From the IMG/VR virus record IMGVR_UViG_2526164632_000010: DNA of 9,277 bases, one strand, 5' to 3'. The stretch comes from a virus (taxonomy: Duplodnaviria; Heunggongvirae; Uroviricota; Caudoviricetes). A program made the translations under genes and the position numbers. Below the pieces are notes generated by a model that worked only from the letters and a program-made list of their open reading frames with translations, was not told the DNA's origin and searched no databases. Positions 2,039 to 9,277 of this stretch are shown here, piece by piece (the stretch's first letter is position 1; the number at the start of each line of letters is the position of its first letter).

Positions 2039-2350
2039 TTACCCAGGAAATAACGCCCGGATATTCCCAGCCATCTGGCTGGTTATCTTAGCCACTGGTG
2101 CAGACTGTGCTTCAAACTTTTTTGAGCTGATTTGTGTCACAGGTAACATCTCATCATCAGCCCATGCGGCCAGTCGGTAAGCCTCTGCCGGATTCGTCTT
2201 CAGAAGTGCCAGCCCGGCCAGAAAAGCCACGCGTTGGCCGCTTTTGCGGGCTTCTGGTGTAAGGCTGTCCAGCCAGGCGCATGCTTCTCCTTCGTTCTTG
2301 ACGGCAGCTGGCTTCAGATAGAAACTTATTCTTCTGGTTGGTGTCGTCAT
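2039..2350 (-). CDS. parR: ParR/StbB-like centromere-binding partition adaptor, 103 aa
   Basis: Immediately downstream of parM with a 4-nt gap. N-terminal RRISFYLKP...LDSLTPEARKSGQRVAFLAGLALLKTNP resembles plasmid R1 ParR (RRTIAFKLNP...LDSIPQGERSRLNRAALTAGLALYRQDP) as recalled. Confidence 0.8.
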   Translation of the reverse strand: MTTPTRRISFYLKPAAVKNEGEACAWLDSLTPEARKSGQRVAFLAGLALLKTNPAEAYRLAAWADDEMLPVTQISSKKFEAQSAPVAKITSQMAGNIRALFPG

Positions 2351-2354
2351 TGGT

Positions 2355-3314
2355 TTACTCCTTGTTCATTGCGTACAGCCCATTAACCAGAGCAAACTGT
2401 GGCACCCCGTCCGCGATGAAAGTCGCATTAACTCCGCAGGCTTCGCGGATAGCGGGTGCCACAATCTCCGCCCCTCCACCGACAACCATCACCCGCCCGT
2501 AACCGGAAAAACCCGCCAGCGCGCGGATCACTCGTTGTTTCAGTGTCTCCTCCTTTTCACGAATAACCGCCATCAGGCTGTTGTAATGCGCGTCATTGTG
2601 AATGTGCTGGCGCAGCCAGGCTTCATCGTGACGGTGCTCAATAATGGTATTGGCGATGTGGTGACTGGTACGCATACCGTTAGTGGCCATCACCGACAGC
2701 ACGGCATCAGCCATCAGGGAAACGCCTACGTTTGGATCGCAAAACACCTGGCTGATACCTGCCAGCTGCCCCTGAACCTTTGCCACATCCAGCGTGGTTC
2801 CGCCCAAATCCACAATCAGCAGGGATTCAAACGGACTCATGTCAGCCAGTGCCTTAAAGCCAGCCGGAATGGATTCAGGCATAACCCGTACGTTACGGAT
2901 AGTGAATGCTTCGCCGTTCTGGTACTCCACCGGGCGCATGACGTTCGCTTTTTTGCGGTTGATGTTGGCCATGTCCGGCTGTGCGTTTGTGTCGAAATAC
3001 TCGCTCAGTGGCAGGGTGACAACCACATCCACCTCCTGTGGCGTGATGCCTGATTTGACCAGCGCGTGATGAATGGCGATTACATTCACATCGCTGTACT
3101 GGTATTGCGTGTCAGTCGTCTGGACAAAACGATCGCTGACCGGATCAAAGCCATAGCGCACGCCATCAAGCATGTAGTTCGCGGGATGCGTGCCACCGAA
3201 CGGCGCAGACCATTCCGACTTGAAGCTGTTCGGGCTGATGGCGTTGCGGCGTTCGCCGTTCTCAGTCCATGCCAGCTTGATGTTGGTGGAGCCGTCGTCG
3301 ATACAAATTTTCAT
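2355..3314 (-). CDS. parM: ParM/StbA-like actin-type plasmid segregation ATPase, 319 aa
   Basis: ATG at 3314 with AAGGA 8 nt upstream. Motifs shared with R1 ParM as recalled: N-terminal IDDGSTNIKL, YSDVNVIAIHHAL, NRKKAN, VMPESIPAG, LIVDLGGTTLD, GVSL, GGGAE, LVNG. Confidence 0.93.
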   Translation of the reverse strand: MKICIDDGSTNIKLAWTENGERRNAISPNSFKSEWSAPFGGTHPANYMLDGVRYGFDPVSDRFVQTTDTQYQYSDVNVIAIHHALVKSGITPQEVDVVVTLPLSEYFDTNAQPDMANINRKKANVMRPVEYQNGEAFTIRNVRVMPESIPAGFKALADMSPFESLLIVDLGGTTLDVAKVQGQLAGISQVFCDPNVGVSLMADAVLSVMATNGMRTSHHIANTIIEHRHDEAWLRQHIHNDAHYNSLMAVIREKEETLKQRVIRALAGFSGYGRVMVVGGGAEIVAPAIREACGVNATFIADGVPQFALVNGLYAMNKE

Positions 3315-3344
3315 GTCGATTTTCCTTATGTTGGTTAATTAACC

Positions 3345-3457
3345 GTTTACGGGATTTTTAAATCCCGCTTTCGCCTGTTTTGTGCGCGCTTCATATATCG
3401 CGGCGCGTTTTTTGCTCATTTACGGGATTTGTGGATCCCGTTTCTGTCTGTTTTTTG
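3345..3457. repeat. Two imperfect 40-bp direct repeats, each with a CGGGAT...ATCCCG inverted repeat, upstream of parM
   Basis: Copy A at 3345-3384 and copy B at 3418-3457, about 30 of 40 positions identical, 73 bp apart. Copy A is intergenic; copy B overlaps the last codons of the replication gene. Position relative to parM matches a parC-like centromere/operator. Confidence 0.45.
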
Positions 3458-6198
3458 TTTCCACTGGTCAGGCCACCCTGCAGCAGGTCTGCTTTGCGGC
3501 TGGCGCGTTCAGTGGTTTCACTGATTCTCTGTGCGTGCTCTGCGTCGCGGATGGCGCGCAGCATGTCAGAAAGCACGGTAACGGGTGTTTTCATGGTGTT
3601 CTGATCCTGCTGAAGTGCGGATGCCAGGCGTGCGGCGGCTTCGGGGTCTGATGCCCCCAGCTGTGCCAGATAGCTGGCGACCGGGTTATGGCGGATCTCC
3701 GTGCTGCTTACGCCGTGATTACGGCTCAGGTGCTGCCAGAGCTGCGTGATTCGGCTGTCCGGGCGGGTATCCGGTTTGCGTACAATTTCATATCCCTGCG
3801 GTGCAATGATGCTGCCGTCAACGTACAGGCTGCCGCCCCGTAGCAGGTGCTGCATCTGCTGTTCACCGATATGCAGGCCGAGAGATTCGGCAGACTCCCG
3901 CCATTCTTTAGCGAGTAATTCGTGGTTATCAGGCAAAGGCCGCTGCTGTTTGCGGCTCTGTGTCCAGCTCTGCATTTCATCACTGCTGTTTTTTGCCTGT
4001 TTGTCACGAAGCGAACGCATCAGCGCCCGGCGTTCGTGCCGTTTCAGTGAGCGCATCCATTCGTTCACTTCAACGCCGTCAGGAAGCTGCGGCCACGGTG
4101 CTGGCCGTTCTTTCGACTGTTCTGTCCCGCTGTTGCCTGTTTCCTGTACACGGGGACAGTTATTGCCACGAGTCCAAGGGGCGGCAGGGCCGCCCTGAAG
4201 GTCAAAACCATTTTCGCGGGCGCTGTCTTCCGCTTCCGGTTTGCGTCTTACCAGCTTCCAGTTATCCGGATGCGTGCACACACGGGAGGATTCCCCGATG
4301 AGTGGTGACCAGATCCCGTAAATCTGTACGCTCTGTTCGCCGTAATCGTTCAGCTCATCGGCGAGGTCGTAGGCGGTGCGAATCAGGTAGTCTTTGCGTG
4401 GAACAAGTACGCCGCCCTGTTTCTCTATGTAGGTGGCAAAACATCCTGCATCAGCGGCAGCGAGTACCGCATCCATTGCGTCATCCTTCAGCCGTTGCGG
4501 GCCTTCCGGGTTGCGTGCCATCTGGCTGGCAAGGCGGCGGAGTTCACGCCACACCTGACGGGAGGGGATGCCAAAGAACTGGAACTGGCGGACCCGGTGA
4601 AGGCGCGCCCAGCCGATGGCGCGTTCCACGCTCTCGGCCATTGATTTTCCGGTTTCGTGGTCAACGCGTGGCTTGCCCGTTTTCTGGTCGATGCCATCCA
4701 CGGCGCGGCTGTCCAGGTTCTTTCCGATGTAGGTGGCGATGTAGCTGGTTGGTGTGCCTTTTGAGCCGTCTACGTACTCCGCCTTAAAACGCGGAGTTAT
4801 GTCATCGCCCAGCTCGTGGCGGTCTTCCTGAATGGCAATATCGCAGACGTGGGACACGATGGTTTCAATCTCGTCCGGATGTGCAAAGACCATCATATGC
4901 CAGTGCACGGTGCCGTCATGGTGAGGCTCCACCGTGCGGATGCCATACCAGCGCAGGCCGTCGCGGTTCAGTTTCTTGCGGACCGCCGCAAAAAACGTGT
5001 TAACCAGGTAATCGCTGGAGTCGCGCATGGTGGCCCCGTTCCATTTGGGATTCGGATGACCGTTCTCTGTTGTGGCGTGGTATTTTGACGGGCAGGTGAC
5101 AGTCAGAAACACCGCTTTGTCGCCACGGGCTTCGGCCAGAAGTTCCAGCCCCTTCATGGTGGCCATCATTTCTGCCTTACGGTGAACCGGGTTACTTACT
5201 CCCGCGTAATACACTGTCTCGAGATCAATCGTGAACCCGTCTTCGTTTTCCAGCATGAAACTTTTCAGGAAATCGCGTGTTTTCTCGCGCTGTGCGCGAA
5301 ACTCGCTTAACGCGTCCTGGCTCAGATAGGGTGATGTTTTTCTGGAAACCAGACAGGCGGCGCGGAGTTGTTCTTCTCTCCACTCGCAACGTAACAGCCA
5401 CAATTTGCGTTTCCACCATTCCGCACAGGTCAGGCGAAGGATTGCGCCCGGTAACAGTTCCGTATCCGGATCGCTCTTGTTCAGGGCTTCGTAATGTGGC
5501 GGCATGATGTGCAGGCGTAATGCGATACGGGCCAGCATCCGGTAAGCCTTCAACATTACATCCATGGTCAGCTCGCCATCTCTGGCACCAAAGCCATCGC
5601 AGAGTGTTTCGAAGGTGCTGCTGAACATCGCCGCCGTCATGGTGGCCAGCGTCTGTATCTGGTGCTTGTTGAGCTGCGGCAGGTAAAGCAAATCGTCCAG
5701 GCGTTCGCGCCCGGCAAGGGAGCGATAACCCGGTGTCAGCCAGCGCCCGTCAGTGCGATCCAGACGTTCGAATATTTTGCGCAGGGTCCCGCGCGCGTAG
5801 CGTTCAGCCTGCTGGTTCTTTTTACCTTTCTGGCGGTCAGATTCCTGTTTTTTGCGCAGGAAGGAGAGGTGGCGAATAAGCGGATCGCGCAGATAGGATG
5901 GCAGCAGGCGCAGCGAGGCCATGGCTTCATCCACCGCGCCGCGTACCTGCTTTCTGGCGTCTCCTGCCAGTGTGATGGTTTTGTCCTGTTTTTCCTGTGC
6001 GTCCAGGCTTTTATTAATCAGGTTGCCCAGCGGCGTGGCGGAGAACGCCGCATCAGCCATTTCCTGGCAGCGCTCGTTCTCTGCCCGGTAGGCATCCAGC
6101 CAGGAGGAAAGCGCGGATTCAGGAGCGGGGATCCCCGTTCCTTCACGCCCCACTGCGTGGCGCGGTTGCTGCCAGTCCCTGATGTACTCTGCCGTCAT
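3391..6198 (-). CDS. Rolling-circle replication initiator, P2 gpA family (HUH endonuclease), 935 aa
   Basis: HUH motif HWHMMVF near residue 431-437 and active-site-like tyrosine pair Y486/Y490 in SYIATYIGKNLD, the same Y-x3-Y spacing recalled for P2 A and phiX174 A. Long ORF; start is 6 nt after the stop of the preceding gene. Confidence 0.9.
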   Translation of the reverse strand: MTAEYIRDWQQPRHAVGREGTGIPAPESALSSWLDAYRAENERCQEMADAAFSATPLGNLINKSLDAQEKQDKTITLAGDARKQVRGAVDEAMASLRLLPSYLRDPLIRHLSFLRKKQESDRQKGKKNQQAERYARGTLRKIFERLDRTDGRWLTPGYRSLAGRERLDDLLYLPQLNKHQIQTLATMTAAMFSSTFETLCDGFGARDGELTMDVMLKAYRMLARIALRLHIMPPHYEALNKSDPDTELLPGAILRLTCAEWWKRKLWLLRCEWREEQLRAACLVSRKTSPYLSQDALSEFRAQREKTRDFLKSFMLENEDGFTIDLETVYYAGVSNPVHRKAEMMATMKGLELLAEARGDKAVFLTVTCPSKYHATTENGHPNPKWNGATMRDSSDYLVNTFFAAVRKKLNRDGLRWYGIRTVEPHHDGTVHWHMMVFAHPDEIETIVSHVCDIAIQEDRHELGDDITPRFKAEYVDGSKGTPTSYIATYIGKNLDSRAVDGIDQKTGKPRVDHETGKSMAESVERAIGWARLHRVRQFQFFGIPSRQVWRELRRLASQMARNPEGPQRLKDDAMDAVLAAADAGCFATYIEKQGGVLVPRKDYLIRTAYDLADELNDYGEQSVQIYGIWSPLIGESSRVCTHPDNWKLVRRKPEAEDSARENGFDLQGGPAAPWTRGNNCPRVQETGNSGTEQSKERPAPWPQLPDGVEVNEWMRSLKRHERRALMRSLRDKQAKNSSDEMQSWTQSRKQQRPLPDNHELLAKEWRESAESLGLHIGEQQMQHLLRGGSLYVDGSIIAPQGYEIVRKPDTRPDSRITQLWQHLSRNHGVSSTEIRHNPVASYLAQLGASDPEAAARLASALQQDQNTMKTPVTVLSDMLRAIRDAEHAQRISETTERASRKADLLQGGLTSGNKKQTETGSTNPVNEQKTRRDI

Positions 6199-6204
6199 AG
6201 TGAT

Positions 6205-6570
6205 TTACTTCGTTATGCCATTCAGGGTGTCGCGGCAGACTGTAGCCAGCCGCTGAATTTCCAGCACGGTGTCTTCTGTGTCGGCATGGCGATGTGTGAT
6301 GCGGATGCTGTCGGCAATCACATCGACGATTGCAGAGGATGGGCGCTGGTAAATGCCAATAACGGACGGGGTGCCACCTTCAATGCGGTAAAGCCTGTAA
6401 TTTCCCTCGTGGCTGTCAATCATGTAGCGACCATCAATAACAATCTTTCCGTCAGCGAGCTGCGGTACAGGCAGGGATTTCAGGTACATGTCATAACGTT
6501 CACGCACGCGAACGGCAAGATCACGTTCTGTGTTGAGCAGGTATTCAAGAAAGTCGTTGGCGAGAATCAT
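6205..6570 (-). CDS. Hypothetical protein, 121 aa (early operon, directly upstream of the replication gene)
   Basis: ATG at 6570 with AAGAGGA about 8 nt upstream; tightly linked to the replication gene. No family recognised. Confidence 0.6.
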   Translation of the reverse strand: MILANDFLEYLLNTERDLAVRVRERYDMYLKSLPVPQLADGKIVIDGRYMIDSHEGNYRLYRIEGGTPSVIGIYQRPSSAIVDVIADSIRITHRHADTEDTVLEIQRLATVCRDTLNGITK

Positions 6571-6642
6571 TGCGGCAATCCTCTTGTTACAGATGTGCGA
6601 AGGCCTCCCGCCGCAAGGTGCAGGAAAGGCCCGGAACAGGAA

Positions 6643-6873
6643 TTAATGGAGTTTGTTTTGCTGCTGGATGAGCTGCTGAAGCTCGCGCAGATCATCCGCC
6701 AGATAACTGAAAACAGCGGATGAATAGAGGTTTGAAAGTTCGCAGCTACGCTCATGCAGCATATTGATGTGCATGATTTGCGCGACGCGTGATGCGCGGG
6801 AAAGTCTGCGGTTGATTTCAGTCTGGATGTGACGACGCTCCGCGATAGTGCGGTGCTGTTTGCGGTTTGCCAT
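6643..6873 (-). CDS. Hypothetical small basic protein, 76 aa (possible regulator)
   Basis: ATG at 6873 with AGAGG and a 7-nt spacer. Basic N-terminus and helical-looking sequence. An overlapping 205-aa ORF in another frame is low-complexity and was rejected. Confidence 0.55.
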   Translation of the reverse strand: MANRKQHRTIAERRHIQTEINRRLSRASRVAQIMHINMLHERSCELSNLYSSAVFSYLADDLRELQQLIQQQNKLH

Positions 6874-7050
6874 GGTGTGGCCTCTACGTGTGTAAGTTTT
6901 GAAAACTCACCATCCAGAGCTGCGAAACTGTGGGTGGCGAGACGTACGAGGTTCGCAGTACCGGCAAACGCAGAACCCGGCCCGACCGAAGTCGGCCCCG
7001 TACGCCCCACCATAATTCTGATGCGAAAAAGACGTGGCGATACAGTACGC

Positions 7051-7073
7051 ACAAAAAAACCGCTGGCGCGGTT
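7051..7073 (-). terminator. Candidate intrinsic terminator or attenuator inside the early operon (minus strand)
   Basis: Minus-strand RNA would read AACCGC-GCCA-GCGGUU followed by UUUUUGU. Located about 120 nt downstream of the 99-aa gene and upstream of the 76-aa gene. Confidence 0.45.
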
Positions 7074-7195
7074 GTGCGCTACGTTTGTCAGCGGGCTGCG
7101 AAACCCGGCACCCGTTTTATGAGGTGCAGCGGAAATGTAACCTGACTGATTGCGGCATGGCAAGCGGTTTTTTTGTGTGTGCATGTTCTGGTTTC

Positions 7196-8460: not shown

Positions 8461-8664
8461 TAGCGTGCCTTTTCAGCTTCGCTAATGATTTCTCGTACGG
8501 TCTGGTACGGAAGTTCCACAAGCAGTCGCGTGCCGTTCAGATAAACGTAAGTGGCTTCGTCGGCTCCGTTTTTACCCGCCGGAGTCACTCCGTCAATAGC
8601 GGATGCACGTAATAACAGTTCACCGCGAAAATCAATAAAACGGATAAATACACCTTGTGCATGG
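8461..8664 (-). pseudogene. C-terminal fragment (about 67 codons) of a gene truncated by the IS2 insertion
   Basis: Open frame runs from the IS2 boundary (8664) to TAG at 8463..8461 and encodes ...GELLLRASAIDGVTPAGKNGADEATYVYLNGTRLLVELPYQTVREIISEAEKAR, which looks protein-like. There is no start codon inside the window on this side of IS2. Confidence 0.4.
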
Positions 8665-9277
8665 TGGATTTGCCCCTATATTTCCAGACATCTGTTATCA
8701 CTTAACCCATTACAAGCCCGCTGCCGCAGATATTCCCGTGGCGAGCGATAACCCAGCGCACTATGCGGATGCCATTCGTTATAATGCTCGAACGCCTCTG
8801 CAAGGTTCTTTGCTGCCGTTAACCCGTCTGGTTTGGGCATGATACTGATGTAGTCACGCTTTATCGTTTTCACGAAGCTCTCTGCTATTCCGTTACTCTC
8901 CGGACTCCGCACCGCCGTGTTCTTCGGTTCAAGTCCCAACATCCGGGCGAACTGGCGTGTTTCATTAGCCCGGTAGCATGAACCATTATCCGTCAGCCAC
9001 TCCACTGGAGACGACGGAAGATCGTTGCCGAAGCGGCGTTCCACCGCTCCCAGCATGACGTCCTGTACTGTTTCACTGTTGAAGCCGCCGGTAGTCACCG
9101 CCCAGTGCAGTGCCTCACGATCACAGCAGTCCAGCGCGAACGTGACACGCAGTCTCTCTCCGTTATCACAGCAGAACTCGAACCCGTCAGAGCACCATCG
9201 CTGATTGCTTTCTTTCACGGCCACTCTGCCTGTATGTGCCCGTTTCGATGGCGGTACAGCAGGTTTTCGCTCAAGCA
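8665..9277 (-). mobile_element. IS2 (IS3 family), right-end 613 bp; the element continues beyond the window
   Basis: Terminal sequence TGGATTTGCCCCTATATTTCCAGACATCTGTTATCACTTAACCC starting at 8665 matches the IS2 right inverted repeat as recalled. Contains the 3' part of insD. Confidence 0.9.
8676..9277 (-). CDS. insD: IS2 transposase OrfB (InsD), C-terminal part; 5' end outside the window
   Basis: C-terminal sequence ...[41 protein letters not shown] matches IS2 InsD by recall. Frame stays open from 9224 to the window edge. Confidence 0.9.

Follow-up and report, generated by a model that had tools for sequence, protein, structure and literature searches.

The textbook example of an actin-like machine for DNA segregation is ParMRC, which has been studied on plasmids. 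Phages also encode centromeres that segregate phage DNA, such as the parS sites of P1 and P7 and the sop-type sites of N15. These are type I systems (ParA/ParB) of plasmid prophages, whereas the locus considered here is type II (actin-like) and belongs to a phage that is almost always integrated.

In plasmid R1 the binding of the adaptor protein ParR to its iterons is established and parC is reported to be strongly curved (PMC2241845). The R1 parC has a 39-bp core with the par promoter, which is repressed by ParR (PMC2241845). The iterons are direct 11-bp repeats (AAAACAAACCC) arranged five and five, in clusters that start 94 bp apart. ParMR loci on Enterobacterales plasmids (Pantoea L175, Cronobacter L181 and Mangrovibacter L179) have two repeat clusters just 5' of parM, each of three direct ~11-bp (T/A)TCTC iterons. 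The Pantoea iterons flank a sigma-70-like promoter, and in Cronobacter a TATAAT is seen by eye between the clusters. Among prophages, CGP3 of Corynebacterium glutamicum carries AlpA/AlpC/alpS, whose adaptor binds to repeats ahead of the operon that encodes it (PMC4446434). The excised CGP3 DNA is linked to the filaments, and expression is early after induction (PMC4446434).

Here we describe a pair of palindromic repeats upstream of parM in a 9,277-bp stretch of viral DNA (Caudoviricetes; IMG/VR record IMGVR_UViG_2526164632_000010), referred to as the window. Comparison of sequences suggests that the two 39-nt units probably serve as the parC centromere of a type II ParMRC partition module carried by the phage. 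The locus belongs to a known family of type II partition loci. What is unusual is the build of its candidate centromere, in which two palindromic units occur without a recognisable promoter and which lies in an integrating phage. Literature searches on ParM in P2-like prophages returned nothing on this locus.

The locus resembles the parC of R1 and R100 (where ParR is also called StbB) in lying directly upstream of a parM-parR pair; the ParR is again a member of PF10784 and shows 33% identity with R1 ParR across its N-terminal 61 aa. It also shares with R1 parC two repeat-bearing halves around a core, helically phased A-tract DNA and a leader with the CATAAGGA motif. The differences are in the repeats, which are two 39-nt palindromic units 73 bp apart rather than 5+5 direct iterons; in the core, which contains a promoter in R1 and none detectable by sequence scan in the window; and in the host replicon, a plasmid for R1 and an integrating P2-like prophage here. 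The Enterobacterales plasmid loci (ParM 50-52% identical, PF10784 ParR) match the present one in the place of their repeats and in the 72-73 bp between the starts of the clusters, and differ in their iterons and in the ParR strand, RRKIxFY and not RRISFYL. As in CGP3, an actin-like filament protein and a DNA-binding adaptor come from an integrated prophage. The CGP3 role is experimentally supported, whereas the present case is built from genes and sequence. The CGP3 proteins are unrelated at the family level, its 24 alpS repeats (TTAAnnG) lie in the promoter region and its host is Gram-positive.

The rep-parM junction of a P88-like prophage

The window is the early region of a P88-like prophage (Xuanwuvirus, Peduoviridae, P2-like), and about 80% of it is similar to phage P88 and relatives at ~94-95% identity. 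The genes rep, parM and parR all lie on the minus strand in that order (Table 1). ParM and ParR are encoded right beside the repeats, and both are labelled partition proteins by PHROG. No gene is annotated by RefSeq between rep and parM.

Table 1. Features at the rep-parM-parR locus (window coordinates)
Feature	Coordinates	Strand	Description
rep	3391..6198	-	935 aa, gpA-type rolling-circle replication endonuclease; Pfam Phage_GPA, 8e-129
whole proposed parC region	3330..3470	.	141 bp; AA/TT periodicity
distal unit	3419..3457	-	A-rich flank and palindrome CGGGATCCACAAATCCCG (3440..3423); proposed ParR-binding half of parC
core between units	3385..3418	-	34 bp; holds the rep stop codon (3393-3391) and an A6 run
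proximal unit	3346..3384	-	A-rich flank and palindrome CGGGATTTAAAAATCCCG (3367..3350); proposed ParR-binding half of parC
small ORF (probably not a gene)	3339-3419	-	26 codons, MSKKRAAIYEARTKQAKAGFKNPVNG; starts 26 nt before the rep stop codon, ends just 5' of the parM ribosome-binding site
parM ribosome-binding site	3323..3327	-	AAGGA, within the CATAAGGA motif common to R1 and other parM leaders
parM	2355..3314	-	actin-like ATPase; StbA_N (PF06406, 3e-82) and ParM C-terminal domain (PF21523, 2e-68)
parR	2039..2350	-	adaptor protein; Plasmid_stab_B (PF10784, 1e-23), the family of R1 ParR/StbB

The two units are direct repeats that match at 31 of 39 positions (79%). Their starts are 73 bp apart, which leaves 34 bp between them. 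In 300 dinucleotide-preserving shuffles of 3200-3600 the best pair of 39-mers had 22.3 matches on average and 27 at most. Each unit contains one exact CGGGAT-N6-ATCCCG palindrome, and these are the only two sites of this sequence in the 9,277-bp window, where 0.29 matches with up to two mismatches are expected by chance. In one complete 34.5-kb relative phage genome, GGGA-N8-TCCC is likewise confined to these two sites. The distal unit falls wholly within the last 22 codons of rep. The proximal unit lies in the 76 bp between rep and parM. Its GGG is 52 nt 5' of the parM ATG, and together the units span 36-143 nt upstream of that ATG. Repeated cis units thus stand directly upstream of parM. The preliminary description had reported imperfect direct repeats with internal palindromes, 73 bp apart upstream of parM and one of them inside the last codons of the replication gene; the repeat and palindrome searches agree with this on every count.

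A third, weak match to the 39-nt unit (64% identity) was seen at 4108-4146, in rep coding sequence 689 bp from the pair. It has AAACAGGCAACAGCGGGAC in common with the unit flank and no TCCC partner. It was rejected as a real unit and is probably due to chance or a remnant.

The candidate parC region has the strongest 10-11.5-bp AA/TT periodicity in the window (power 2.21 at 3330-3470, against a maximum of 2.1 over 262 tiles). Shuffled sequences gave a mean of 0.64 and none of 400 reached 2.21, while R1 parC scores 2.6 on the same measure. The signal is present in the Hafnia and Serratia loci and absent in Plesiomonas. This periodicity predicts bent DNA, and the region in this respect is helically phased as in R1. 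The units themselves are built differently, since R1-style direct arrays of ~11-bp iterons (5+5) are not found and two units with 18-bp palindromes stand in their place. An apparent likeness of the half-sites to the R1 motif (AAATCCCG / AAAACCC) was not significant: with a matrix of the ten R1 iterons the half-sites rank only ~95th-107th in the window, and A-rich coding DNA scores above them.

In ParR the N-terminal strand TRRISFYLKP is invariant among relatives and the C-terminal linker is free to vary. A sequence search of ParR against the PDB gave no match, and the AF2 monomer model from a 16-sequence alignment was poor (pLDDT 54.5, pTM 0.31). A profile search of genome contigs with the ParR alignment found four loci only, and tblastn against plasmids recovered phage-like copies only. 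A ParM 98-99% identical to that of the window can be paired with a ParR that is just 52-55% identical (for example L038 and L092, which are the same contig). All of this divergence is in the C-terminal linker (residues 64-95), while the N-terminal 63 residues and the last eight (NIRALFPE type) are kept. The middle of parR looks mosaic or fast-evolving because the divergence sits wholly in the linker.

Several other features of the window were observed. An IS2 copy at 8651-9277 is 99% identical to many IS2 records, and the P88-like similarity stops at this copy (~8663). The upstream part of the early region, which in P88 is the cox/C/int side, is thus interrupted or replaced in the window. On the minus strand at 6930-7140 there are strong Rfam matches to C4 antisense RNA (6930-7017, 80 bits) and isrK (7053-7127, 70 bits), and a weak match to the a1/b1 target of C4 at 7088-7140. 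All three are inside a mechanical ORF (6567..7184) whose N-terminal part resembles PHROG transcriptional regulators, and a 21-nt inverted repeat (7047-7067 / 7160-7180) brackets the isrK match. This stretch looks like a P1/P7-type immI antisense-RNA module within a P2-like prophage. The minus-strand sequence 3' of parR (1880-2000) is AT-rich and non-coding with short palindromes (atagattgtctattatctatcgat). It includes a promoter-like TTGACA-17-TAAGAT, good by eye, and a GC-rich hairpin (ccccaatagcagcaactattgggg) further downstream, and could be a separate transcription unit or a small RNA before the next ORF.

Conservation and the link to parMR

The palindromes vary among close relatives. Only 31 of 80 IMG/VR relatives with a ParM at least 98% identical have both exact palindromes. 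The constant part is GGGA-N8-TCCC, and the perfect 6-bp arms are not fixed. Two arm bases are commonly polymorphic: the sixth in the distal copy and, in the right arm of the proximal copy, the fifth. The spacers are variable. In 94 distinct sequences the arm changes are all one-sided, with none compensated on both sides. The site region has a mean minor-allele frequency of 0.032 over 91 distinct sequences of the E. coli type, compared with 0.033 at third codon positions of parM and 0.0025 at its first and second positions. The 16 GGGA/TCCC positions have a lower value than the rest (0.017 versus 0.034), a difference that is not significant (permutation p = 0.22). Over short distances conservation is thus weak.

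More is learned from distant relatives. The Hafnia phage L167 has two units (GGGATTCATGAATCCC and GGGATTTGAAAATCCC) at the same distance of 73 bp; in the core, a +1 and a -1 indel compensate each other and so keep this distance. The Hafnia rep ends within palindrome 1, in another reading frame. The Plesiomonas phage L171 is so distant that the four-fold sites of parM are saturated relative to the window (35% identical). It nevertheless has GCGGGACAACAAAAACCCG and GCGGGACAACACTAACCCA, of the GCGGGAC-N-CCC type and 72 bp apart, at -131/-59 from the parM ATG compared with -125/-52 in the window. The pair of GGG-N10-CCC motifs thus persists in distant relatives with its spacing fixed at about seven helical turns, and is maintained as DNA sequence, whatever protein frame crosses it.

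Every related locus that was examined has equivalent repeats at this position upstream of parM. Their type appears to change with the type of the ParR N-terminal strand, a pattern that is drawn from four clades only. ParR proteins with RRISFYL (E. coli type, Hafnia and Plesiomonas) go with two direct units holding GGGA-N8-TCCC. Those with RKISFYL (Serratia L172 and Enterobacter L173, L185 and L186) go with one 14-20-bp inverted repeat (CGGGAACGATATAGAAAAAT / ATTTTTCTGTTTCGTTCCC) that has a 26-28-nt gap and arms of the GGGAACGATATAGAAAAAT type. The plasmid loci of Pantoea, Cronobacter and Mangrovibacter pair RRKIxFY with arrays of (T/A)TCTC iterons, and R1 pairs RRTIAFKL with its own ten. The geometry of the pair matches that of the plasmid homologues L175 and L181, whose two iteron clusters start 72 and 73 bp apart, respectively.

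The repeats follow parMR and not rep. In Enterobacter phages (L173) a methyltransferase gene and a 71-aa gene separate rep from parM, and the repeats still adjoin parM, 1.2 kb from rep. In a P2-like relative without parMR (L170, Rep 52% identical) the motif is absent throughout 9.5 kb. Only the non-conserved C-terminal tail of rep overlaps the distal unit, and the C-terminal parts of Rep show no conservation between lineages. Counted by codon position, the polymorphic sites of the rep tail number 12/8/10; those of the preceding 88 rep codons number 39/44/64 and those of parM 11/10/70. With frameshifts in A-runs, some relatives have a shorter tail and others one that continues into the next frame. 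The rep-repeat overlap therefore looks incidental: the tail has no coding signature, and the rep frame simply stays open into the site as far as the next stop codon. The preliminary description had proposed that the overlap could couple control of the partition genes to expression of the replication gene. This proposal is not borne out: the tail lacks codon-position bias and shifts frame or fuses in relatives, Hafnia stops in a different frame and two genes intervene in Enterobacter.

Single-base indels in two A6 runs (3451-3456 and 3408-3413) were seen to give differing rep C-termini (3394-3459 in the window; relatives L002-L164). Some relatives have short tails (...GNKNRQKRDSQIP*), and three sequences have an in-frame fusion of rep with the 26-codon ORF.

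The site region is widespread in E. coli. Of 5426 complete E. coli genomes, 1297 contain the 181-bp sequence of 3300-3480, with 1433 places on chromosomes and only two on plasmids. It is 100% identical in ETEC H10407 and several further ETEC strains. One record deposited as an E. coli plasmid (NZ_CP148288.1, L177; 34,461 bp, circular) comprises an entire P88-like phage genome: it has genes for integrase, Cox, capsid and tail and shares the rep-parM-parR region with the window. This record may represent the phage in excised or episomal form.

Transcription of parMR and alternative readings of the repeats

No sigma-70-like promoter was found by promoter scan on either strand of 3100-3800, so that the repeats do not flank a recognisable parMR promoter. 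A relaxed scan gave nothing comparable in the core of any phage-type locus, and the same scan recovers the core promoters of R1 (TTGATT-16-TAAACT) and of the Pantoea plasmid (TTGAGC-17-TAACAT). Both scans were negative just after the proximal unit as well; hits with a -35 that begins ~27 nt before the ATG would have their -10 across the start codon and are meaningless. A terminator scan of the sense strand between rep and parM was also negative, and terminator-like sites are on the plus (antisense) strand only. An intrinsic terminator of rep is not evident: the sense-strand hairpins are followed by UAAAUGAG and UAAACGG and there is no U-tract. Lack of a sense-strand terminator makes co-transcription with rep more likely. 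The sequence is most simply read with parMR as the distal end of the early rep operon, although ParR bound at the candidate site could, speculatively, still hinder read-through.

The autoregulatory half of the classical parC definition is therefore missing, because no promoter was found in the core. The parC-type site had been suggested to double as the parM operator, and the sequence scans, which find no sigma-70-like promoter in or near the core, lend that role no support. Of the three-part reading in the preliminary description, the parC-type site is favoured on comparative evidence, and the operator and the coupling to rep are not supported.

Other origins for the repeats were weighed against a parC-type site. 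Transcripts that cross the rep-parM junction would contain the palindromes, which might act as RNA hairpins in processing, stability or translation control and not as a DNA site. The sense strand does fold into two 7-8-bp hairpins (MFE -41.4 kcal/mol, z = -3.25 versus shuffles), and the common ATCCCG>ATCCTG variant would retain a G-U pair in the sense RNA. Such a role is nonetheless unlikely. The one-sided arm changes give no two-sided compensation in the 94 distinct sequences, the Plesiomonas GGG/CCC around a 10-nt spacer is too weak to pair as a hairpin, and in this region the sense strand has neither a U-tract or terminator nor an Rfam match. Moreover, a constant spacing of 72-73 bp and A-tracts phased at 10.5 bp are properties of duplex DNA. 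Another possibility is a site for some other protein, be it a gpA origin or termination element, a phage regulator or a host factor, next to parM by coincidence. One copy is inside rep, the origins of the P2 family lie within gene A, and HUH initiator proteins often recognise inverted repeats. We regard this as improbable, a little more so than the hairpins, because the repeats travel with the parMR module: L170 has a gpA gene and no motif, the Enterobacter repeats adjoin parM at a distance from rep, the repeat type tracks the ParR type, and the geometry is like that of plasmid parC sites that have no gpA gene nearby.

The polymorphism in close relatives, which is at the level of synonymous sites, with palindrome arms broken in many and core positions not significantly more conserved, is what would be expected of a neutral 73-bp duplication that is decaying and has no present function. 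Over longer distances this account does poorly, and we consider it about as improbable as a site for another protein. The GGG-N10-CCC pair and its spacing survive in Plesiomonas, where synonymous sites of parM are saturated; the paired indels in Hafnia preserve 73 bp; and each ParR clade has its own conserved repeat structure in the same place. A coding origin, as a duplicated peptide motif or a small gene, is very unlikely. Both units are read in equivalent frames, by the rep tail (...KQTETGSTNPVN) and by the 26-aa ORF (...KQAKAGFKNPVNG), and that ORF is intact with 26 codons in most E. coli-type relatives and in Hafnia. Its polymorphic sites are nonetheless spread evenly over codon positions (13/14/13), several relatives have frameshifts or premature stops, Plesiomonas lacks the ORF, Hafnia reads palindrome 1 in another frame and PHROG gives no match. 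The 26-codon ORF (3419..3339) is thus probably not a gene, and the duplicated ...NPVN peptide was rejected with it for its lack of codon-position bias, frameshifted relatives and absence in Plesiomonas.

A parC-type site remains the best explanation for the repeats. It accounts for their position, plasmid-like geometry, uniqueness in the genome and helical phasing, and for the way in which they travel with parMR and match the ParR type.

A model for the candidate centromere and its implications

We infer from the sequence how such a site may work, including the binding of ParR, the number of ParR dimers bound and a function in segregation. Dimers of ParR, a protein of ribbon-helix-helix type, would bind the inverted GGGA/TCCC half-sites in each palindrome, with centres ~13 bp apart, and probably the A-rich flank of each unit as well. 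The two occupied units, seven helical turns apart, would be on the same face of intrinsically bent DNA. Both could then assemble a single ParR-DNA partition complex, which would capture or cap the ends of ParM filaments, and growth of the filaments would push copies of the phage DNA apart. The parMR genes would probably be the last to be transcribed in the early rep operon, and rep would simply read into the candidate centromere until its stop codon, so that the overlap is incidental.

The locus is nearly always chromosomal and is apparently without a promoter of its own. We would therefore expect the machine to work chiefly on excised or replicating circles, once the phage has been induced or has infected a cell. 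A broader proposal is that about a quarter of complete E. coli genomes carry a prophage ParMRC spindle that is made only after infection or induction and acts on excised, replicating phage DNA. This would be a Gram-negative counterpart of CGP3 AlpACS and not a device for plasmid maintenance. We put it forward as a tentative possibility that is, on balance, doubtful. If it is correct, the spindle might position or separate phage genomes or permit a transient plasmid-like carrier state. The prophage would then contain a true module of the R1 family, with a promoterless two-palindrome centromere closing its early replication operon.

This integrating P2-like prophage contains a complete module of the R1 family, whose candidate centromere is built differently, at a locus that is small and well defined. 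If ParR binds both palindromes, this would be a minimal type II centromere of two units and no promoter. Such a site would be useful for learning how few ParR dimers can cap a ParM filament, and it would raise the question of what an integrating phage gains from a segregation spindle.
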